Positions 1,215-38,551 of a DNA stretch of 38,551 bases are shown here, piece by piece. The stretch is from a virus. Its lineage: Duplodnaviria > Caudoviricetes. Below the pieces are notes generated by a model that was not told where the DNA came from, searched no databases, and saw only the letters and a program-made list of their open reading frames with translations. The position numbers and the translations under genes are program-made. The DNA is taken from IMG/VR virus record IMGVR_UViG_3300030397_000289, positions 1 through 38,551 of that record; one strand, 5' to 3'. Positions within the stretch are counted from its first letter, which is position 1, and each line of letters begins with the position of its first letter.

Positions 1215-1251
1215 CTGAATTTCGTATATTATACACCGAACAAAAACAATT
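1202..1251 (+). promoter_or_regulatory. Bacteroidota-type promoter plus conserved leader GAACAAAAACAATT upstream of recT
   Basis: CTTG(1202-05)-N19-TATATTAT(1225-32); motif at 1238-1251; ATG at 1259. Confidence 0.6.
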
Positions 1252-2884: not shown

Positions 2885-3136
2885 ATGAAAAGTTTACACA
2901 AGAATTACCAGGAAATGCTTAAAGAGTGCAGGGGGCCGGTAAGGCGTTTTATTATGCTAATTGCCCCGTTTTGGTTTGCTTTAAATGTAACGGGCTATGT
3001 TCCCGCGCTTATTGTGTGGGACAGCAACCCAGCGCTGGCCGACGCCCTTTTATGGGGGTGGCTGGTAAGCTGTGTTGTTTTTGTTTTTGCCTGGGCGTTC
3101 TCTATGCCGCAGGGGTGGGAACCGATGGATATTTAA
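2885..3136 (+). CDS. Small membrane protein (2 TM)
   Basis: Two hydrophobic segments; operon spacing. Confidence 0.65.
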   Translation: MKSLHKNYQEMLKECRGPVRRFIMLIAPFWFALNVTGYVPALIVWDSNPALADALLWGWLVSCVVFVFAWAFSMPQGWEPMDI

Positions 3137-4551: not shown

Positions 4552-4556
4552 ACCAC

Positions 4557-4626
4557 TAAAAAAGGGACCCGGTGCAGGTCCCTAATCGGATTTTGTACGC
4601 TTTACTTAACTAACTACTAAAAGATT
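4557..4626 (-). ncRNA. Predicted small RNA on the minus strand (promoter to intrinsic terminator, no ORF)
   Basis: Minus-strand GTTG(4662-59)-N20-TAACATTG(4638-31); hairpin AGGGACC/GGTCCCT (4563-4583) followed by T6 on the minus strand. Confidence 0.5.
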
Positions 4627-4680
4627 TGAACAATGTTAGCTAAAATATTTCCAACTGTCAACGGATTTAGTACTTTTACA

Positions 4681-4785
4681 GAAAGGGGGCTTACCGGGGC
4701 TTATAATCCTGGGACAGCTTTAAATTCCACTGGGGCGCGCCCTCCTTTCTTTTTTTACAGTGGGAACACATAAACAGTGGAATAA
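4681..4785 (+). promoter_or_regulatory. Structured leader (C4/CI-like antisense element) upstream of the replication initiator
   Basis: Outer stem GAAAGGGGGC/GCCCTCCTTTC plus T-tract; internal ATTCCACTG (4724-32) complementary to CAGTGGGAA (4758-66) and CAGTGGAAT (4775-83). Confidence 0.55.
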
Positions 4786-8470: not shown

Positions 8471-8807
8471 GCACTTCGCGGCAAAGGTTGACGATAACCA
8501 GAAGAATATCGTTAAAATACTACGCAGATCGGGGGCATTTGTCTTATCCATTGCTATGGTTAAGAACGCCTTCGACCTGGTAGTAGCCTACAGAGGCAAA
8601 GTATACTGCATGGAGGTGAAGGACGGCAGCAAACAACCCAGCAGCCGCAAGCTTTCAGACGGCGAGATCCATGCAGCTAGAAAGCTGGAAGCCACCGGCG
8701 TAACCTACCACGTAGTAAAGAGCGCCGAGGAAGCACTTAAAACCATCCTCACCGGTGAAGACCAAACAGACGAATTTTACAGAGAACAGAAACAACTTAA
8801 ATTATGA
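8463..8807 (+). CDS. VRR-NUC/PD-(D/E)xK nuclease (Holliday-junction-resolvase-like)
   Basis: AKVD.NQ..IV..LR..GA.V, FDLVV.Y.G....MEVKDG, LS..E; likely ATG at 8463. Confidence 0.82.
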   Translation: MPKHFAAKVDDNQKNIVKILRRSGAFVLSIAMVKNAFDLVVAYRGKVYCMEVKDGSKQPSSRKLSDGEIHAARKLEATGVTYHVVKSAEEALKTILTGEDQTDEFYREQKQLKL

Positions 8808-8964: not shown

Positions 8965-9063
8965 AGCGTGTACAAGGTCGATGAAAAATTATTTTCTCGC
9001 AACGATGCACATAGAAGGCAAAGTAGGCGTTCCTTGGCGAGGGTTCGAATCCCTCACACGCTG
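8965..9063 (+). ncRNA. tRNA-like RNA (acceptor stem and canonical T-arm, non-canonical middle)
   Basis: AGCGTGT(8965-71)/ACACGCT(9056-62); GAGGG-TTCGAAT-CCCTC (9039-55); CAAGG/CCTTG inner helix; no clear D or anticodon arm; no encoded CCA. Confidence 0.6.
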
Positions 9064-9083
9064 CTAGAACAAAAACAAGAAAA

Positions 9084-9476
9084 ATGAGAACTTACCAAGA
9101 ATTGAAAAATGCACGCCTGCAAAAGGGGCTAACCTTCGCAGACATTGAACGAGCCACCGGGGTAGATGGCCAGACGATCGCCCGCATAGAACAGGGTAAA
9201 AATGTTATGCACGAAGCGTGGCAGAAAGTGGAAGCCTACCTGTTTTCCGAACAAGCAAAAGTACCCGCCCTTATCCGCTGGGCAAATGACGGGTATAAGG
9301 AAATTGACCTAAACGCCAATAAGGAACTGGTGCTGGATCTGATTAATAAGTACTGCTCGATGACAGGCGAAGTAGTTAACCTAAGATCAAAGGTAGCACT
9401 ACAGGAGGAAAAAATGCGCCTTATCAAAGCGGGCGCCGAGGAAATTATTAGAGCAGCAAACTGGGGCACGTATTAA
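9084..9476 (+). CDS. XRE-family HTH transcriptional regulator
   Basis: LKNARLQKGLTFADIERATGV...TIARIEQG. Confidence 0.85.
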   Translation: MRTYQELKNARLQKGLTFADIERATGVDGQTIARIEQGKNVMHEAWQKVEAYLFSEQAKVPALIRWANDGYKEIDLNANKELVLDLINKYCSMTGEVVNLRSKVALQEEKMRLIKAGAEEIIRAANWGTY

Positions 9477-10082: not shown

Positions 10083-10123
10083 CTGGTCGGGGATTGTTAT
10101 TTTTAGTACGAACAAAAACAATT
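10074..10123 (+). promoter_or_regulatory. Bacteroidota-type promoter plus GAACAAAAACAATT leader
   Basis: CTTG(10074-77)-N20-TATTTTTA(10098-105); motif 10110-10123; ATG 10129. Confidence 0.62.
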
Positions 10124-10128
10124 TAGAG

Positions 10129-10368
10129 ATGAATGAATTACAAAAATATTATGCTGGCGGGGCTGCGCTAGCGGGAATCTTTTTGATAATAACCATAGTA
10201 ATAATGGTTATAGGACTCCAGGATTTAAAGACCTGGGAGCAGGAAACGGAACTATCAGCCCGTGAAGTTTTAGCGGGAAAAGTCTTTTTGTGGGCAATGT
10301 TTATTGCTTGTTGCAGCTACCTAGTGCTAGATATGGCTGGTAATATCGCAAAATATAGAAGCGAATGA
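10129..10368 (+). CDS. Small membrane protein (2 TM)
   Basis: ATG 10129 after the conserved leader (ORF-track start 9994 overlaps the upstream gene); two hydrophobic segments. Confidence 0.65.
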   Translation: MNELQKYYAGGAALAGIFLIITIVIMVIGLQDLKTWEQETELSAREVLAGKVFLWAMFIACCSYLVLDMAGNIAKYRSE

Positions 10369-13091: not shown

Positions 13092-13367
13092 ATGAAACGT
13101 TTTATCTTACTTGCCTTCTTACTTCTGAGCGCAGCCTTCGCCACCCAGGCCGGCACGCCAGGCTTTAGCCAAGAAGAAGGCCCTGTAATTTCCATAGTGG
13201 AAGACGCAGGCAGCGATTTTTACGCGGTTGACGCTGTAACAACTAATACCGACGTAGCCCTAAGCGCACAGGGCCAGGAGTTGCGCAGAATTCAAAAACA
13301 TAAGGTTTCTAAATATGTCCCTACCTACTGCAATACGTTTGTATGGTATAGGGACTTTGGAAATTAA
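13092..13367 (+). CDS. Secreted/periplasmic protein with Sec signal peptide (moron-like)
   Basis: MKRFILLAFLLLSAAFATQA signal peptide ending in small residues; own promoter and terminator. Confidence 0.7.
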   Translation: MKRFILLAFLLLSAAFATQAGTPGFSQEEGPVISIVEDAGSDFYAVDAVTTNTDVALSAQGQELRRIQKHKVSKYVPTYCNTFVWYRDFGN

Positions 13368-13430
13368 AGCACAACCAAAAGAGAGGGGGCAGCGTTCAAC
13401 TTGTGCACAGGTGGCTGCCCCCCAAGAGAC

Positions 13431-13454
13431 AGCCCGCCGAAAGCGGGCTTTTTT
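13431..13454 (+). terminator. Intrinsic terminator
   Basis: AGCCCGC-CGAAA-GCGGGCT followed by T-tract. Confidence 0.85.
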
Positions 13455-13474
13455 CATTTCACACCCTTTTTATG

Positions 13475-13500
13475 TAGCTTTGGGGTATCATATCCGAAAA
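13475..13500 (+). promoter_or_regulatory. Putative late promoter (-7 element TAGCTTTG)
   Basis: Perfect TAnnTTTG; downstream GGTA..T.CGAAA shared with the site at 20734. Confidence 0.55.
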
Positions 13501-31768: not shown

Positions 31769-32494
31769 ATGTGGGTATTACAGCAATTTGACTGGGGGCT
31801 GGGTAATTTCATAAACCTCACCCCCGCCATACGGGCTATAGCCGACAAGACAGGTGAAAGGGTGCCCGTATTCTTTTCCCAGGATTACGTAAAGCAGTGT
31901 TTTTTGGACTGTGACTTTATGGAGATCCTACCAGGGCACCCTGGGGGCCAGCCTGTCCTGCGGTCATCAATGATAAACAGGGACATGCCCGACTGGCAGT
32001 ACGTTTACCTTATCGCTCAAAAGCTTTTTAAGTTATCTCCAACAATTCCCCACACCTATGTAGATAAGCTCGAACCACCAGAAGGATTGGGGGAATACGA
32101 CGTAATAGTAAACGGCTGCTACACCGAGCAGCGACGCCATACCAAAGATCCCGGGCCGGTAGCTATGCGCTGGCTGGTGAACAGGGACAGGCAGCAGTAT
32201 TTTGTGGGCAGCGAAAAGGACTGCATCAATTCAGCCTACCTAAACCTGCCCCAGGTAAGCGGAAATATTCGGGAATGCCTGAAATATATTAGCGGTGCGC
32301 GCTTTTTCTTTGGAAATGCAACGGGTTTTTACCATGTTGCTAATGCCCTACAAAAACAGGGATTGGTCCTATGGAAAGATTGCCACTGGGTTAAGAATGT
32401 AGGGCGGGGTGAAAGCGTTAAGCGTATAAGCCTCTATAATGAGAACATAGAACAATTGATAAAGGCATGGACGAGAGAATACTTAGAGCATTAA
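31769..32494 (+). CDS. Putative GT-B glycosyltransferase (GT9/heptosyltransferase-like)
   Basis: GLGNFI..TPAIRA and I..A..F.GN.TG..H.A.AL....LVLW. Confidence 0.78.
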   Translation: MWVLQQFDWGLGNFINLTPAIRAIADKTGERVPVFFSQDYVKQCFLDCDFMEILPGHPGGQPVLRSSMINRDMPDWQYVYLIAQKLFKLSPTIPHTYVDKLEPPEGLGEYDVIVNGCYTEQRRHTKDPGPVAMRWLVNRDRQQYFVGSEKDCINSAYLNLPQVSGNIRECLKYISGARFFFGNATGFYHVANALQKQGLVLWKDCHWVKNVGRGESVKRISLYNENIEQLIKAWTREYLEH

Positions 32495-32682
32495 AAAGGC
32501 TTACAGGATGGGCTATTTTAGCTAATGCGGCCCTTGTTATGGGGAAGATATTACTATTTGCCGCTCAGAATCCTGAGTTAAACAGCTTTCAGATACTTGT
32601 GGCTAAGTGGCACCTTTACCTATATGCCATTTTTTGTGCTACCGTCGTTGCCTTTGCTTATGAAACTTTATTTGAAAAATAA
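32467..32682 (+). CDS. Small 2-TM membrane protein
   Basis: Two hydrophobic segments. Confidence 0.6.
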   Translation: MDERILRALKRLTGWAILANAALVMGKILLFAAQNPELNSFQILVAKWHLYLYAIFCATVVAFAYETLFEK

Positions 32683-32688
32683 AAACAC

Positions 32689-33378
32689 ATGAAAACTTTT
32701 GAAATTAGTGGACACACCTACATTCAAGACATGTTAGGCATAGTCCACCAGGTTAACGCTGAACCCTTTACCTACGACAAGGATTACATAGCGTGCTACG
32801 ACAGTCCCGAATACGTGCGCAACTCGTTCAAACTTCAACACATCCGATATGATTTTATTGTAAAGGAACTGACCTCCGCACCATCAAACTACCGGTTTTT
32901 GGATTACGGCTTTGGTAATGGTCATTTTTTAATGCACGTACAGTCTAGCGCTGGGCTGGCTCCTATGGGCTATGATATCGGGGATTACGAAATACCGCTG
33001 GGTTGCGAGAAGTGGGACGGAAAAAAATCGTTTGATATACTCACCATGTGGGACGTGCTGGAACATATACCCGACTTACAAGACTTTTTTAATACGGTAA
33101 TTTCAAAGTTTTGGCCTACCTACATATGCATAAGCCTACCAAAACCCCCGCTGGAATACGACGAAAGCGGCGAAAGGAACTTTTTACCCTGGGAGGATTG
33201 GCACCACCTGAAGCCTAACGAGCACCTGCACCACTTTAAGCCGTCAGCTTTAGTCGGTCTTATGGACGCGTGGGGTTACACATCAGTAAGGCAGGGGTCG
33301 CCTGAGGATGCGGTAAGACGACCCAAACAGGGGCAGGCATACAACATTTTCACGGGGTTATATAAAATTAGGCGGTGA
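32689..33378 (+). CDS. Class I SAM-dependent methyltransferase (glycan/small-molecule type)
   Basis: LDYGFGNG.F, GYD, FD..T.WDVLEHIPD, P.EHL.HF. Confidence 0.88.
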   Translation: MKTFEISGHTYIQDMLGIVHQVNAEPFTYDKDYIACYDSPEYVRNSFKLQHIRYDFIVKELTSAPSNYRFLDYGFGNGHFLMHVQSSAGLAPMGYDIGDYEIPLGCEKWDGKKSFDILTMWDVLEHIPDLQDFFNTVISKFWPTYICISLPKPPLEYDESGERNFLPWEDWHHLKPNEHLHHFKPSALVGLMDAWGYTSVRQGSPEDAVRRPKQGQAYNIFTGLYKIRR

Positions 33379-33593
33379 GAGAAGGGTTTTACATAGCAAG
33401 TGCTGTGGCTATTATGCTGCTGCTTATTTTTGCCTTTTGGTGGTTCCCTTTCGAGGTTATACTATACTACACCGACTGCGACCCTGTAAACGTGTGGTCT
33501 ATTGTGGTTTTCTGCTGCATGTTGGTTGCCATAGCTGTAGGCTTCTGGATAAGCAGGGCGGCTTCACGACAATCATTTGATGAGGGATTATGA
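33375..33593 (+). CDS. Small 2-TM membrane protein
   Basis: Two hydrophobic segments; GTGA overlap. Confidence 0.6.
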   Translation: MREGFYIASAVAIMLLLIFAFWWFPFEVILYYTDCDPVNVWSIVVFCCMLVAIAVGFWISRAASRQSFDEGL

Positions 33594-34426
33594 TAATTAA
33601 ATTACCGCCAGGAATCGGCGACATATACTGGGTATTACAGAAGCTCAGTTCTACAGGTAGAAAATTCGACTACCAGATAGCCCAGGACCATACCCGCAGG
33701 GGAATACAGATATTCCAACTGTTCCCCCATACGGTCAATTCAGTAAAGTACGGTAGGTTTACCTCCCGCGACGTGCTGAACGGCTGCCCCGGATCTACTT
33801 CATGGGAGAAGATTAAAGGCAAAAGGGAGGTGTACCTGAGCGCCAACACCTGGGTAGACAGCGGCAACCGCATTGAAAACTGGATCCCAGACTTAGAGTT
33901 GCAGACAGATCTATGGAAGCACGCCGTAATTACTGAGCATGACGAGGAAAATGCCACAGACATAGCCGAAAGCCTAGACTACAATTACTGGGTAATAGCC
34001 CCCAGCAGCATACAGAATGCCAACAGGTCGGGCCTTTGGAATCAAGGGCTGTGGGCTAAGTTCTTAAAACACTTTCCCAGGAAAACAAAGTTTTTGTTTG
34101 TGGGTGCCGAGTACGACGAGGATATGATATTTAGCATAGCCCACCTGATAGGGGCGCGCCCTCATGAGTTTTGCATAGGGGAAAGTTTGGGAACGGTTAG
34201 CACCTTACTTTCCAGCGCTCAGGGGGTGATATGCAGGGCTTCAGGGCTGGGCATACTGTCTGAAAGTATGGCTACACGCACCTGTATGATGTATCCCATA
34301 CACGAAAAGAAGCTTATCAAGAGCTTTGCAAGTAAGAAGCACATAGAAAACGGGCTGTACATTGGCACGACCCGGAAGACCACTACGGATTTATATAGAA
34401 GAATTACGCAGACATGGAAACAGTAG
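33590..34426 (+). CDS. Putative GT-B glycosyltransferase (GT9-like)
   Basis: GIGDIYW, W....W, VG...D, G.SL......L..A..VI...SGL..L. Confidence 0.72.
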   Translation: MIIKLPPGIGDIYWVLQKLSSTGRKFDYQIAQDHTRRGIQIFQLFPHTVNSVKYGRFTSRDVLNGCPGSTSWEKIKGKREVYLSANTWVDSGNRIENWIPDLELQTDLWKHAVITEHDEENATDIAESLDYNYWVIAPSSIQNANRSGLWNQGLWAKFLKHFPRKTKFLFVGAEYDEDMIFSIAHLIGARPHEFCIGESLGTVSTLLSSAQGVICRASGLGILSESMATRTCMMYPIHEKKLIKSFASKKHIENGLYIGTTRKTTTDLYRRITQTWKQ

Positions 34427-34863
34427 TTTATTACCAACGCTTTAAAACCTTTCAGCAGCGTTTCTTTGAAAAGGTAAAAAAGACTTCAGGGTGCTGGCTA
34501 TGGGTGGGGACAAAAAATAAAAAGGGGTACGGCGGAATGAGGCTACACGGCAAAATGGAAAAAGCACACCGTGTAAGCTGGTTGATATTTTGGGGAGCGA
34601 TACCTAAAGGCAAGCACGTTTTGCACCACTGCGACAATCCGGGCTGTGTGAATCCTACGCACCTATTTTTAGGGACGAACGCGGATAATATGAGAGACAA
34701 AACAAAGAAAGGTAGGCAGGCTAAAAAACTCACAGATGAGGAGGTTAAAGAGATTAGGCACATGCACAAAAGGGGAGTTGCCCAAAAAGTTATTGCTAAA
34801 ACATACAACTGCGTCCCCTCTAATATTAGCTACATTGTGAATAACAAAACGCGCGTCTTATGA
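34414..34863 (+). CDS. HNH homing endonuclease with C-terminal HTH
   Basis: RFFEKV....CWLW.G....GYG, AHRVSW, LHHCDNP.CVNP.HL..GT..DNM.D. Confidence 0.92.
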   Translation: METVVYYQRFKTFQQRFFEKVKKTSGCWLWVGTKNKKGYGGMRLHGKMEKAHRVSWLIFWGAIPKGKHVLHHCDNPGCVNPTHLFLGTNADNMRDKTKKGRQAKKLTDEEVKEIRHMHKRGVAQKVIAKTYNCVPSNISYIVNNKTRVL

Positions 34864-35618
34864 AGTTGGGGTGTGCCTATAGCGTATTCAACGGCGAAGA
34901 ACTATTGCAGGCCAGTATAGAATGTATTAGGGATTACGTAGACCATGTGCATGTTTCCTACCAGCTAACCAGTAACCACGGCACAGAAGCAGATCCCAAC
35001 CTGTTCGGGCTTATTATGGCCCTCAAAAAGCAGAAGCTTATAGACACGCTTCATTACTTTGTGCCTTTACCGAAGTGGACAGCGAAGCAAAACGAAGCCT
35101 TGAAGCGGGAACAGGCTAGGGATTTTTTACATAAAACAGGCTGCACCCATTTTATCAGTATGGACTGCGACGAGTTTTACGAGCCTGAAAGGTTTGAAGA
35201 GGCGAAGTTGTGGTGTATAGAACTGCAAGCACCAGCCACAGCGGTAGAGCTTCTAAGCTATTACAAAACACCTGAATACCAGCTTACCCCCAAAGAGTCG
35301 TACTACTGCCCTTTTATTTGCGAGATCGAGCAGGAGATAGATTTAAACAATACCTGGGACATCGTGGTAGATTCCAGCCGAAAGGCGGGCAATAACGACG
35401 CTGTAGTCATTCCCGAATTTATCTGTGAAATGCACCACATGAGCTACGTAAGAACAGACCTGCGCAGCAAACTGGAAAATGCCGCCAGCAAGCACGTATA
35501 CGATGGTAAGGTGGACGATATTCTGTGGGACTTTGAAAACTGGGAGTACCCCGACCCTGTCAACTGGGCAGGCCAGTATAAACAGGTTAAGAAAATAAAG
35601 CCTATCTTTGTTCTATGA
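34860..35618 (+). CDS. Putative GT-A/GT2-like glycosyltransferase
   Basis: YSVFNGEELL..SI..IR.YVD, E..KR, SMDCDEFY (DxDE), MHHMSYVR. Confidence 0.75.
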   Translation: MKLGCAYSVFNGEELLQASIECIRDYVDHVHVSYQLTSNHGTEADPNLFGLIMALKKQKLIDTLHYFVPLPKWTAKQNEALKREQARDFLHKTGCTHFISMDCDEFYEPERFEEAKLWCIELQAPATAVELLSYYKTPEYQLTPKESYYCPFICEIEQEIDLNNTWDIVVDSSRKAGNNDAVVIPEFICEMHHMSYVRTDLRSKLENAASKHVYDGKVDDILWDFENWEYPDPVNWAGQYKQVKKIKPIFVL

Positions 35619-35728
35619 CTAAGGTAATAATGACATGCAGTACAAAGCCCTACCTGGTTCAGGTAAGCCTTATTCCGCCTTGCGGCCATAAAAAGTGCGG
35701 CATGACCTTTGACTTATTTCTGAACTAA
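35615..35728 (+). CDS. Possible 37-aa peptide
   Basis: ATGA overlap; TATCTTTG -7 box at 35603. Confidence 0.3.
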   Translation: MTKVIMTCSTKPYLVQVSLIPPCGHKKCGMTFDLFLN

Positions 35729-35759
35729 TGAAGGATATAATAGTTAGAGATCTGGAAGA

Positions 35760-36266
35760 TTGGGAGGATTAGACACACCTATAGAGCAAGTAGGCGACCT
35801 TATTGATAAGGTGGGCACCAACGCCGACAAGCTTACTGAGTCGGGGGAGGAGAGGCAGAAGGAATTAACCGAACGCCTCAAGATTGATATGGCCTCCGAT
35901 AATAAGCTGAGCAAGTCTATACGGCCTATTTCGCTTATCTGGCTGCTCACCCTCTACACTTTACTGGCACTGCTTATATGTACGCTGCTTTATATGGATA
36001 TTACCGTAGAGCCACTTTTATGGTTTTCCGGGGAGGTTACCGTGCTATTGGGTACTGTTTTGGGCTTTTACTTCAACTCCAAGAAAGCCGAAAGGGTGCA
36101 AGCTAAACGAGCTGCGGCGGCCATCGAGATCGAGCAGCAGAAGCAGAAGGCGGAAGTATCAGCAGAAAGGGAAAGGTCGAAATTTAACAAAAGAGTACTA
36201 CGTCAAATTCGAAAGGGTAAACTTACCCCCGAACAAGGGGAAAGCCTTTTGAATGCAGATATTTGA
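35760..36266 (+). CDS. Holin (3TM/GTA-holin-like); start uncertain (TTG)
   Basis: G.LIDK....EER, DM.SD..LSK.IRP, two TM helices, GFYF. Confidence 0.75.
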   Translation: MGGLDTPIEQVGDLIDKVGTNADKLTESGEERQKELTERLKIDMASDNKLSKSIRPISLIWLLTLYTLLALLICTLLYMDITVEPLLWFSGEVTVLLGTVLGFYFNSKKAERVQAKRAAAAIEIEQQKQKAEVSAERERSKFNKRVLRQIRKGKLTPEQGESLLNADI

Positions 36267-36567
36267 GCACGAAATAATAGCAATGCTTTTCGGAGTTATT
36301 GTGGGGTCTATTATCAACTGGTCCCAGGAGCGTAATAAGAACAAACGACTTAAATTCAAAAAGTGGGCTTACGATTATTACGACGACGCCATTAAGGCCG
36401 CCGCTATCGGTCTGGCTGTAATTGTCTTTGACGATGAAATAATAGCTTGGACAGGTAGCGCATTCATAGAAAACATGGGGGACTTGCTTTACTTTTTTGC
36501 TGGGCTGGGGCGCGAAGGTTTTCTTTACATCAAAGACCGTTTTCTTTCTTTCAATTCAAAAAAATAG
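36253..36567 (+). CDS. Membrane protein (possible second holin)
   Basis: Three hydrophobic segments; last gene of late operon. Confidence 0.6.
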   Translation: MQIFEHEIIAMLFGVIVGSIINWSQERNKNKRLKFKKWAYDYYDDAIKAAAIGLAVIVFDDEIIAWTGSAFIENMGDLLYFFAGLGREGFLYIKDRFLSFNSKK

Positions 36568-36581
36568 GGTAGCTTTACCCT

Positions 36582-36675
36582 TGAAACACTTCTATTACGT
36601 GACCGGTCCTGGTCACAGTCTTTAGAAATTGTTTTTGTTCGACCCCGGTTATGATCTCGTTTCCGGGGTTTTTTG
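36582..36675 (+). ncRNA. Predicted sRNA antisense to the GAACAAAAACAATT leaders
   Basis: TAGCTTTA -7 box (36570-77); hairpin GTGACC/GGTCAC (36599-616); GAAATTGTTTTTGTTCG (36625-41); terminator hairpin 36641-75. Confidence 0.55.
36641..36675 (+). terminator. Intrinsic terminator at end of late region
   Basis: ACCCCGG...CCGGGGT followed by T-tract. Confidence 0.8.
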
Positions 36676-36708
36676 TTTCACGTGGAACGTAAATAAATAC
36701 ACCGAGTA

Positions 36709-36758
36709 TTTGGAATATTTCTGATAGTTTCGTAACTATGTAGTGAACAAAAACAATT
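36709..36758 (+). promoter_or_regulatory. Early promoter plus GAACAAAAACAATT leader
   Basis: TTTG(36709-12)-N20-TAACTATG(36733-40); motif 36745-58; ATG 36766. Confidence 0.68.
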
Positions 36759-36765
36759 TCAAGCA

Positions 36766-37023
36766 ATGAGTACCATCACAAATAGCATTACTTGGCATGA
36801 GGTTACAGTTATTGACGTTGAGGAGATCCTGCCCGACGTTGTAGGTAAAGTCGATTTTGAGCTTATCACCCCAAACCCATGGGAGGGCAGCAAGCCGGAA
36901 ATAGTGGTAACCCACGTAGACGATAACCTGAAAGTATACGGCGACTGGGCCGACCAGATTACCGAGCAAATACTGGAAGAGTACCCCGAAGGCGAAATGT
37001 CCCCGTTTGTACGCCTTACTTAA
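36766..37023 (+). CDS. Acidic hypothetical early protein
   Basis: First gene after the early promoter; strongly D/E-rich. Confidence 0.7.
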   Translation: MSTITNSITWHEVTVIDVEEILPDVVGKVDFELITPNPWEGSKPEIVVTHVDDNLKVYGDWADQITEQILEEYPEGEMSPFVRLT

Positions 37024-37097
37024 AGCCTCCTGCGCTAACGGGGTGCTATATGTATCAACACATCACATCAAACTTTGATCGCTTAAAACGAAAATAA

Positions 37098-37274
37098 ATG
37101 AACTTACAAGGAAATTTACGGGTGGCTATATTTACAGCACCAGGTGCCAATGGCGCACAAGAAAAGGTTAACGACTGGCTGAGAAACAATCATGTTAGTA
37201 TTGGTTCGATTCAGATCTCAAGCACTGAGGCGGTAACAGAGGTTTTAATTACATACCAAAAGAAAAGCTCATGA
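37098..37274 (+). CDS. Small hypothetical protein (58 aa, not in ORF track)
   Basis: MNLQGNLRVAIF...EKVNDWLRNN...VLITY; ATGA-coupled to next gene. Confidence 0.6.
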   Translation: MNLQGNLRVAIFTAPGANGAQEKVNDWLRNNHVSIGSIQISSTEAVTEVLITYQKKSS

Positions 37275-37441
37275 CTCAAGAACAAAAGACACTAGCAGAA
37301 CTTAAGAAGCTTCACAAGGAACTGCGCGAGAAAAGCATGGGGGGCGACCTTCAGGCCACTATCAAAATAATCAGCGTGGACGACTGCATAAAGGTGCTTC
37401 AAGCTGGCAAAAGCGGTAAGAAACTAATTGTAAAACTTTAG
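37271..37441 (+). CDS. Small hypothetical protein (56 aa, not in ORF track)
   Basis: MTQEQKTLAELKKLHKELREK... Confidence 0.6.
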   Translation: MTQEQKTLAELKKLHKELREKSMGGDLQATIKIISVDDCIKVLQAGKSGKKLIVKL

Positions 37442-37450
37442 CGCAGATAA

Positions 37451-37612
37451 ATGGAAAACGAAAAAATAATAGTAAAGAATGTGCCGCTGCCTGAGAGCGT
37501 GGTAAATCGTATCAACATAGCCGCCGCTGAGGCTGGCCAGGCCAACAAGGTGAAGTACTACCTTGCTGACCTGTTAATTAAGATGCACCCACCAAAAGAG
37601 GAAAAGAAATGA
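37451..37612 (+). CDS. Putative ribbon-helix-helix DNA-binding protein (53 aa, not in ORF track)
   Basis: KNVPLPESVVNRINIAAAEAG...VKYYLADLL strand-helix-helix pattern. Confidence 0.55.
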   Translation: MENEKIIVKNVPLPESVVNRINIAAAEAGQANKVKYYLADLLIKMHPPKEEKK

Positions 37613-38043
37613 AAAACGAAGAGGGCAAGGAGATACAAGTTTACACTAACGGGGAGGAGGTTTTTGTAGATCAGGATGAGTATAAGCGGCTGTTAGAGAA
37701 ATACCTCCAACAGGAAAACGATAGGAAAGACGATACGATTAAAGATTTGCAGGCCGCTTGTGAACAAAAACAGGAAATTATTAATGGGTCAGAGTCTGAA
37801 AGAAAAAGGCTTCAGCGGGAGCTTACGTGGCAAGAATTTACCTACGACTCAAAGCCACAGAAGGAGGGACTATACCTATGTGCTCAAGCAAGTAGGCATA
37901 GCGAAGCGATACATTTCTTTGTGGCGGATTATTATGAGAATAACCAGACAAACATTGGCTGGATTGCGATTTCCGGTAAATCTGTTACGGTGACTCACTT
38001 CATGGAAATACCAGAACTAAAATCAGAAACAAATGATACTTAG
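37609..38043 (+). CDS. Hypothetical protein with C-terminal DUF551-like domain
   Basis: W......P...G.YL....VTHFMEIPE. Confidence 0.65.
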   Translation: MKNEEGKEIQVYTNGEEVFVDQDEYKRLLEKYLQQENDRKDDTIKDLQAACEQKQEIINGSESERKRLQRELTWQEFTYDSKPQKEGLYLCAQASRHSEAIHFFVADYYENNQTNIGWIAISGKSVTVTHFMEIPELKSETNDT

Positions 38044-38217: not shown

Positions 38218-38430
38218 ATGGAGGGGATTATGAACATATGGAACTGGCCCAGCGTACTGGCAGCAAGGCTTGACCGGCGGCTGAACAAGTGGGCAAAGAA
38301 GCAGGCCCGCAGGTGGCGACAACTTGGACACCTTGAGCAATTAGGGCTACTTGTCGCTATATTTATCGCCCTGGTGCTTTTTGTATCGTGGCTAATCTTA
38401 AGAATATTGGAAACTAATAATTTACTGTAA
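38218..38430 (+). CDS. Small membrane-anchored protein
   Basis: Basic N-terminus and C-terminal TM. Confidence 0.6.
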   Translation: MEGIMNIWNWPSVLAARLDRRLNKWAKKQARRWRQLGHLEQLGLLVAIFIALVLFVSWLILRILETNNLL

Positions 38431-38551
38431 TGATAGCACGACTAGAGGGGGACACCCTTATAATAGATTCATCAAAAAAGCACGGGATAGCGGGACCGGT
38501 AGAAATGCCGTTGGGTGGAATTTTGGCAGATTATATACGCCACTTAGATAT
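38430..38551 (+). CDS. Hypothetical protein running off the window end
   Basis: TAATG-coupled MIARLEGDTLIIDSS... open to the last base. Confidence 0.5.
   Translation, partial: MIARLEGDTLIIDSSKKHGIAGPVEMPLGGILADYIRHLD

Follow-up and report, generated by a model that had tools for sequence, protein, structure and literature searches.

The sequence of a complete virus record of 38,551 nt, the whole of which was analysed and is called the window hereafter, contains a short non-coding unit (36588-36675) whose central stretch is exactly complementary to the leaders of three phage genes. We place at roughly 0.55 the probability that this unit, as read from its sequence, specifies a trans-acting antisense RNA that is directed against three to five mRNAs of the same phage and blocks their initiation. 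The coordinates of the unit, its neighbors and its predicted targets are collected in the table below.

The window is present in three aquatic metagenome DNA runs of one study, and no RNA run carrying it was found among the public runs. Every family-matched gene lies on the + strand, the set comprising RecT, an exonuclease, a replication initiator, a methylase, DnaB, two HTH proteins, terminase, portal, capsid, tail, amidase and holin, and non-coding DNA accounts for 4.4% of the genome in the ORF set used here. Among the 69 window ORFs we found no match to an integrase, a recombinase or a divergent repressor, in agreement with the original prediction of a phage with no visible CI or integrase, but the two HTH proteins and a 53-aa ribbon-helix-helix-like protein encoded in the first early operon (37451-37612; atlas score 0.89, a lead only) qualify that statement. 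Glycosyltransferase-like, methyltransferase and HNH genes are clustered at 31769-35618 inside the late region, with another glycosyltransferase at 486. An ORF also appears to cross the window ends (38430-38551 and 1-306) with a frame offset, which suggests a circular genome cut with a small join error. In a search of a phage collection, the best cultured terminase relatives belonged to Cellulophaga phages (47%). An SD-like word occurs in only 3 of 59 window leaders, which are thus SD-less, and adenine occupies positions -6, -12 and -13 in 34, 33 and 35 of these 59, so that they are A-rich at these positions. Because of the Cellulophaga terminase relatives and these SD-less, A-rich leaders, judged against the leader and promoter signals reported for Bacteroidota (PMC6847099), a Bacteroidota host is likely.

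The seed of the unit is the reverse complement of leader sequences over 15 nt before recT, 16 nt each before the genes at 10129 and 36766, and 12 nt before the HTH gene at 9084, and these matches end 7, 4, 5 and 5 nt, respectively, ahead of an ATG; all four stretches, as well as their distance of 4-7 nt to the start codon, had been described correctly in the original prediction. Across the window, the exact 14-mer GAACAAAAACAATT was found three times in the sense and once in the antisense orientation. When up to two mismatches were tolerated, the 14-mer had 6 sites against 0.65 expected, a number reached by none of 100 shuffles, and Markov models of the window predicted the exact antisense 14-mer only 6e-5 to 1.6e-4 times; at the 11-mer level a second antisense copy lies inside the gene at 3075. 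The 14-nt identity is exact while the flanks differ among the copies, and the three sense copies have different -7 boxes. The antisense copy carries a 5' C that is common to two distant leaders and absent from the neighboring one.

The three exact targets are preceded by -7-like boxes with 1, 1 and 2 mismatches, the background frequency of such boxes being 0.7% of positions at up to one mismatch and 4.6% at up to two. The gap between box and motif, counted to the G of GAAC, amounts to 4 nt after TAACTATG, 4 nt after TATTTTTA and 5 nt after TATATTAT. A TAHHTTTG consensus with a box-to-start distance of 4-5 nt has been reported in F. johnsoniae (PMC6847099). Since the motif lies at this very distance behind the -7-like boxes, it probably represents the first 14-16 nt of three mRNAs, which would accordingly start with GAACAAAAACAATT and possess leaders of 19-21 nt; the commonest 5' UTR length reported in B. 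thetaiotaomicron is 23 nt (PMC7366714). Complementarity extends at most one base upstream of the predicted start. The seed-paired stretch spans -21 to -6 before the AUG and includes the A-12/A-13 region, and the loss of adenines near -12/-13 reportedly cuts F. johnsoniae translation by 30-90% (PMC6847099). As the targets begin 4-5 nt after the -7-like boxes, the seed would cover the first bases of the mRNAs together with the initiation region. We also considered the reverse copy as the promoter-leader of a minus-strand RNA and rejected this candidate, the sequence upstream of it having no -7 box (3-5 mismatches).

Table. Predicted RNA unit, its surroundings and its candidate target leaders, in window coordinates (duplex energies with the seed in kcal/mol).
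Feature	Positions	Strand	Remarks
Upstream genes of the unit: holin (phrog_3427) and a 104-aa ORF	35760..36567	+	stop of the 104-aa ORF precedes the unit
6-bp palindrome over the stop codon of the last late gene	36566..36581		contains TAGCTTTA; weak terminator if read on the - strand
-7 box of the original prediction, TAGCTTTA	36570..36577	+	2 mismatches to TAHHTTTG; chance frequency
Candidate -7 box, TACCCTTG	36576..36583	+	1 mismatch to TAHHTTTG; predicted start 36588-36589
Predicted RNA unit	36588..36675	+	~88 nt; 93-94 nt if the start is 36582-36583; or 3' end of the lysis/late transcript; from folds
5' hairpin, GTGACCG/TGGTCAC	36599..36616	+	7 bp including one G-U; extended by a weak lower stem, 36590-36594/36623-36627
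Seed, GAAATTGTTTTTGTTCG	36625..36641	+	antisense to the shared leader; linker between hairpin and terminator
Intrinsic-terminator-like hairpin and U-tract	36641..36674	+	-14.6 kcal/mol, z -4.3; one-way, no U-tract in the opposite direction
parS-like palindrome, TGTTTCACGTGGAACG	36674..36689		16 bp; overlaps the end of the U-tract; between terminator and early promoter
Predicted early promoter: TTTG, 20 nt, TAACTATG (36733)	36709..36740	+	from sequence
Target leader 1 (16 nt exact), first gene after the junction, ATG 36766	36745..36760	+	4 nt after the -7 box; duplex -20.8
Target leader 2 (15 nt exact), recT, ATG 1259	1237..1251	+	-7-like box TATATTAT at 1225-1232 (2 mismatches); duplex -18.7
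Target leader 3 (16 nt exact), ORF 10129-10368	10109..10124	+	-7-like box TATTTTTA at 10098-10105 (1 mismatch); duplex -23.1
Weaker target (12 nt), HTH gene 9084	9067..9078	+	no -7 box; follows a tRNA-like element; core -13.8
Fifth candidate target, imperfect (bulge, G-U pairs), before ATG 32467	32443..32466	+	duplex -22.2; 1 of 400 shuffled seeds
Sixth, weak copy (2 mismatches), before ATG 8804	8784..8797	+	duplex -14.1, within background

The hairpin and the terminator occupy the places claimed for them in the original prediction, and the unit as a whole was predicted to be more stable than all shuffles (fold z -4.18; 0 of 200 as stable). Whether the seed would be buried in this structure depends on the start of the RNA, as it is open at a computed cost of 1.0 kcal/mol in the 88-nt form beginning at 36588, against 4.0-4.3 kcal/mol for the previously assumed start at 36582-36583, which leaves it partly paired (4.3 kcal/mol). 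The predicted combination of an accessible seed with an intrinsic terminator is the one that characterizes trans-acting base-pairing sRNAs. The box TAGCTTTA from which a ~95-nt RNA had been derived is present at 36570-36577, but its promoter call did not hold in view of its two mismatches, its chance frequency and its G at -10, a base reported to be virtually absent from F. johnsoniae housekeeping promoters (PMC6847099). The 7-mer TAGCTTT occurs 4 times on the + strand against 3.9 expected (and 12 times on the - strand), hence this box is not beyond chance; the overlapping TACCCTTG fits better and would yield an RNA of ~88 nt with a more open seed. A -33 element is absent for both overlapping boxes, TAGCTTTA and TACCCTTG, and the predicted promoter of the unit is weak with either. 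Instead of being the product of its own promoter, the RNA may just as well derive from the 3' end of the holin/late transcript; a perfect -7 box is found at 35603, but 13 such boxes exist on the + strand. A sigma-70 scan relied on a consensus that is unsuited to a Bacteroidota host. The absence of an ORF from the unit applies to the + strand (none of at least 50 aa), but on the - strand a 63-aa TTG-start frame (36575-36766) overlaps it, which we take as a shadow frame.

The likeness that had been drawn between TAGCTTTA and two TAGCTTTG late-type sites dissolved on comparison, since only 7 nt are common and 36570 lacks the GGTA found downstream of those sites. The two TAGCTTTG boxes themselves, located at 13475 and 20734 before the 13521 ORF and the head protease, are followed by GGTA and, further on, by CGAAA, and they are candidate late promoters with a non-consensus G at -10. 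Near the former of these, two stable hairpins (GGGGGCAGC/GCTGCCCCC, then a terminator) were observed at 13370-13455 after a small secreted-looking ORF at 13092, and a small ORF similar to 13092 together with a terminator is found at the holin/early junction of another phage locus (L009).

Pairing energies were computed for the 27-nt linker containing the seed against 67 window leaders. The best duplexes were those with the leaders of 10129, 32467, 36766 and recT, in this order (-23.1, -22.2, -20.8 and -18.7 kcal/mol), and the sum of the top five, -98.9 kcal/mol, was reached by 0 of 400 shuffled seeds, in support of the proposed pairing of the seed with phage leaders. None of 658 leaders from 37 other phage loci reached -16.9 kcal/mol, against -18.7 to -23.1 for these four window leaders; complementarity to initiation regions beyond background is a further trait of trans-acting base-pairing sRNAs. 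In the 88-nt form, with the seed open at 1.0 kcal/mol, the predicted net binding is -15.5 to -17.3 kcal/mol for the three exact targets. Pairing past the exact core, G-U pairs included, was not above that of foreign flanks, of which 77, 206, 426 and 482 of 497 were as good or better, and the sites before 9084 and 8804 (about -14 to -16 kcal/mol) fall inside the background of foreign leaders.

These results narrow the range of targets. The idea that all early operons are silenced was too broad, as the leader of the replication-initiator gene (4786) has no seed match, the genes from 10129 onward run into the large terminase, the site before 9084 is weak, and the late gene 32467 scores equally well. 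The latter encodes a hydrophobic protein of 71 aa in the late region and did not figure among the targets first proposed; its site sits in the end of the upstream CDS and has no -7 box. What endures of the original prediction is one RNA antisense to a shared leader, which is the best reading given targets at predicted 5' ends, two background tests and a second lineage, but neither its promoter nor its reach over all early operons was retained. At 8965-9063, a tRNA-like element with a 7-bp acceptor stem and a T-arm with a TTCGAAT loop ends 3 nt before the 9067 motif; it produced a sub-threshold Rfam tmRNA match (8972-9056, E=0.007), was negative with ARAGORN and had a fold z of -1.7. Since the 9067 site has no box and follows this element, the 5' end of the HTH mRNA may come from processing. 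In the gap ahead of the replication initiator (4555-4785) we noted a -7-like box close to 4670, a U-run preceded by a possible terminator-like pairing, which does not belong to the minimum-energy fold (z -0.9), and, at 4563-4583, a strong terminator on the minus strand; these features are compatible with a possible antisense control of replication.

Searches of viral, phage and genome collections by protein and DNA, based on the 104-aa ORF, terminase, RecT, a terminase alignment and a holin alignment, with a terminase homologue for the genome scan, revealed no close relatives of the window. The best relatives reached 56% for the terminase, 64% for the capsid (on a 3-kb contig) and 60% for RecT, so that no seed-target covariation was available from this source. 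Two phages sharing RecT and the holin have a terminator and a promoter at the same junction, and the seed is absent from both. The window obtained the top score among 192 loci in a terminator-seed scan, and generic detectors, run on 192 loci as well as on 23 genomes or long pieces, brought up no further case in the terminase/RecT relatives, most of their other matches resembling leaders of opposite-strand genes. Pattern scans yielded 0 matches in one instance and 2 in another, neither with both a terminator and a sense copy, and a metagenome pattern scan gave 4, none of which had the hairpin-terminator-promoter layout and two of which were long palindromes.

A viral scan that required a terminator-like pattern behind 11 nt of the seed returned 16 loci. 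Thirteen of them had no sense copy and were taken as chance, and the remaining three (L244, L250 and L251, the last identical to part of L250) exhibit the layout of the window. The L244 and L250 genomes are ~80% alike and gave no tblastn match to window proteins. Both display the order endolysin, holin (phrog_3427, as in the window), small ORF, NinG, hairpin, AATTGTTTTTGTTC and terminator, beyond which come a -7 box, a leader that contains AACAAAAACAA at a distance of 109 nt, and then Erf, SSB and helicase. Their seed consists of the same 14 nt, the three bases beyond the 11-nt query also matching; the spacing between the inverted copies, 106 and 109 nt, is alike in both lineages, and the 5' hairpin shows one compensatory pair change. 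Additionally, each of the two genomes has two promoters whose -7 boxes precede leaders with 11-12 nt of complementarity, and these promoters share sequence upstream of the start too. As the second lineage has the same seed, it provides no covariation; its pairing comprises only 11-12 bp, a strength matched by 10 and 11 of 300 shuffles, and conservation is not limited to the seed but takes in the entire intergenic stretch. It counts as one independent case, selected by searching with this seed. No match to the L244 junction was found in cultured phages, and Rfam detected nothing in L244 or L250. Inside ninG, ~120 nt upstream of the seed, a perfect TATATTTG box (L244:1656 and L250:3706) could start an RNA of roughly 170 nt or may reflect conserved codons only.

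In Bacteroidota genomes, the exact motif followed by an ATG occurs once each in 12 of 301 (control 3), and the seed with a terminator in 2 of 401 (control 2). The latter figure, equal to its control, indicates no host RNA family, and with the former being rare both elements look phage-specific. Among other Bacteroidota-like phages, two (G001 and G008) possess 13-15 nt motifs before 3-4 start codons, the antisense copy being absent in the pieces examined. At another locus (L206:10590-10722), a perfect -7 box is separated from the small gene that follows the holin by a structured leader with long pairing, which we take to resemble attenuator-type leaders.

The parS-like palindrome beside the unit is the sole such site in the window; it has 1 mismatch to the ParB consensus (table in PMC7022226), 0.08 sites being expected, and its binding by ParB is putative. 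Two such sites were found in one Chitinophaga genome, and the phage genome has no match to ParA or ParB; host ParB might act at TGTTTCACGTGGAACG by segregating the phage DNA or by dampening the early promoter. In the three DNA runs, which may be the source of the record, two differences were detected within 35500-38000 and none inside the unit, and the leaders at 1237, 9067 and 10109 had no variants among the rows listed from these same runs.

Taken as a mechanism, these observations suggest that the unit would make a short RNA, which may be free or form the 3' terminus of the lysis transcript. Its U-rich middle, predicted to be open, would base-pair in trans with three phage mRNAs over their first 15-16 bases, these mRNAs being predicted to begin with GAACAAAAACAATT. 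Such pairing would block ribosome loading on the first genes of those mRNAs, and late in infection the RNA would lower the expression of the first early operon as well as of the operons of recT and 10129. The late phase is the likeliest timing, the unit lying at the end of the lysis operon in both lineages, and we favor, on our own estimate, a late shut-off over the less probable carrier-state or immunity role.

The same arrangement of copies can be read at the level of DNA, with the motif being an asymmetric operator at +1 to +16 of the early promoters that is bound by a phage repressor, and the inverted copy ~119 bp upstream being an auxiliary looping site. Three copies do overlap predicted start sites, one copy precedes the HTH gene 9084 as in autoregulation, the spacing of the inverted copies is similar in the two lineages (106 and 109 nt), and candidate repressors exist in HTH 2011, HTH 9084 and the ribbon-helix-helix-like protein at 37451 (the lead scoring 0.89); monomeric repressors binding asymmetric sites have also been reported (PMC9283540). 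However, the reverse copy falls exactly in the linker between two RNA hairpins, the 14-nt identity is exact with unrelated flanks, and a nearly identical sequence in a lineage without detectable protein match would be unexpected for a fast-evolving repressor site, and we thus consider an operator rather unlikely. Just as unlikely, in our judgment, is an action confined to cis, in which read-through late RNA would fold back on the neighboring early leader and silence it, the distant copies being duplicated strong promoter-leader cassettes. Read-through RNA was indeed predicted to pair the seed with the neighboring leader in the window, L244 and L250, at a conserved spacing of 106-109 nt, and the L244/L250 promoters share sequence upstream of the start as well. 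This is countered by the strong terminator that separates seed and leader, by the differing -7 boxes and flanks of the window copies, which are unlike a recent duplication, and by the pairing with 32467, which requires action in trans.

The remaining explanations appear less probable still. A neutral relic, that is, a local inverted duplication of the neighboring leader or a chance product of A/T-rich intergenic DNA, is improbable: the nearest copy is ~100 nt away and an antisense 11-mer also exists in the gene at 3075, but antisense 14-mers are expected at the very low rate given above, the window had the top score among the 192 loci of the terminator-seed scan, the 5' C of the antisense copy is shared with the two distant leaders and not with the neighbor, and the seed recurs in the second lineage. 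Promoter inversion is a Bacteroidota-style mechanism, and the 16-bp inverted repeat 36625-36640/36745-36760 might flank an invertible segment with the terminator, parS and the early promoter, since its geometry brackets the promoter. We regard this as very improbable, given that no recombinase occurs among the 69 ORFs, that direct copies elsewhere would invite deletions, and that no strand-changing joint was present in contigs of the three DNA runs at a depth of 90-390, contigs being prone to drop rare variants and the runs possibly being the source of the record. Equally improbable is a U-rich seed aimed mainly at A-rich host leaders, with host shut-off as its function and the phage targets secondary; Bacteroidota leaders are reported to be A-rich (PMC6847099) and a common host target could account for the same seed in two lineages, but the exact motif with an ATG was found once in each of those 12 genomes and in none of the other 289, against three exact copies in 38.5 kb here.

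The reading as a trans-acting antisense RNA was then compared with known systems. The c4 RNA of P1/P7 is a phage antisense RNA controlling development, and Rfam covariance models found no match at 36570-36675. The CI RNA of the satellite phage P4 is reported as a structured RNA that arises by processing of the very transcript under its control and acts on one operon through premature termination at seqA/seqC (PMC4825925). Like P4 CI and P1 c4, the unit would be a structured RNA that is encoded by the phage and pairs in trans, at two or more sites, with transcripts of that phage, but in contrast to P4 CI its sites are the 5' ends of several separate operons, matched by one 15-16 nt block, and it lacks an Rfam match. 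In c4 and CI the targets flank the RNA in its own precursor or leader (seqA/seqC), whereas the leaders at 1237, 10109 and 36745 belong to separate predicted transcripts. The host sRNAs FopS and GibS of B. thetaiotaomicron repress by pairing at the initiation region (PMC11697453, PMC7366714), and for FopS, pairing at the first gene of operons is described to lower downstream genes, FopS-14 being derived from a 3' UTR (PMC11697453). They share with the unit the translation signals of the phylum, a single-stranded A/U-rich seed with an intrinsic terminator, and a long seed over first-gene initiation regions, but they are host-encoded, act on host targets and carry the seed at the 5' end. Their R1/R1' seed and an Rfam match are lacking here, the published FopS consensus differing when compared by eye. 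The lambdoid sar, OOP, aQ and sas RNAs are described as cis-antisense RNAs, each opposite one target (PMC12197685); as proposed for the present case, a phage RNA represses a phage gene at the RNA level, whereas our unit lies on the strand of its targets and would act on several distant leaders. The stoperators of Cluster A are repeated asymmetric phage DNA sites that are spread through the genome and bound by the repressor (PMC9283540), thus sharing the repeated asymmetric motif and serving as a model for the operator alternative, for which repressor binding is putative here. The unit works, as far as its predicted features go, like P4 CI, P1 c4 and FopS/GibS, and is a member of none of these groups.

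A parallel exists in the SAS of Cluster K phages, described as a 13-bp asymmetric sequence located 3-7 nt before the starts of non-structural genes; four K1 phages have a single copy on the opposite strand, and the choice between an RNA and a protein binder was left open (PMC3203893). Later papers still call the role of SAS unknown (PMC11373665, PMC12699233). In Adephagia and Anaya we located this opposite-strand copy in the gap between genes 92 and 93, where it forms a predicted hairpin loop of 10 nt, and late transcription is reported to start in this 92-93 gap (PMC11373665). Sixteen phages were examined, 12 of them as pieces of 450-650 nt: the antisense SAS 9-mer is exact in 5, a C/U-rich variant loop occurs in 3, and 8 have none; two of these 8 that were checked, Pixie and TM4, keep the SAS in the absence of the antisense loop. 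As the loop exists in only part of the phages examined, SAS serves as an analogue and not as proof, and its parallel with the phage seed is suggestive, not obligatory. SAS further differs by its unrelated sequence and host and by a 13-bp consensus that contains an SD and has 11-19 copies, against 3 exact copies in SD-less leaders here. BLAST with a short SAS-based query returned nothing. The 92-93 gap itself, which has matches in 193 records, holds in Adephagia (L209:38560-38880) a non-coding leader that is long, conserved and highly structured, contains invariant TAGACT, GCACA-CT-T-CC and TGGCTGGTCACC blocks, and is a candidate for an undescribed late-leader RNA.

In the open-access literature searched, we found no case of a phage RNA silencing several operons of its phage by way of a common leader, and in the main text of a 2025 review (PMC12197685) no word begins with Bacteroid or Flavobacter. 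Known phage RNAs that control genes of their own phage act on one operon. A broader view, which we advance tentatively and hold to be possible rather than probable, is that of a regulon switch made of RNA only, in which early promoters would stamp a common 5' tag on their transcripts and the RNA at the end of the lysis operon would be the anti-tag silencing all of them; the recurrence of one seed at the corresponding junction of two distant Bacteroidota phage lineages would then define an undescribed RNA family, with the anti-SAS loop of K1 phages following the same logic. If true, the latter loop would give the SAS puzzle of 2011 a testable partner in a cultured phage. For Bacteroidota phages, the unit would be the first such case within the literature searched, and the closing of several operons by one RNA through a shared 5' tag would amount to a protein-free timing of infection.
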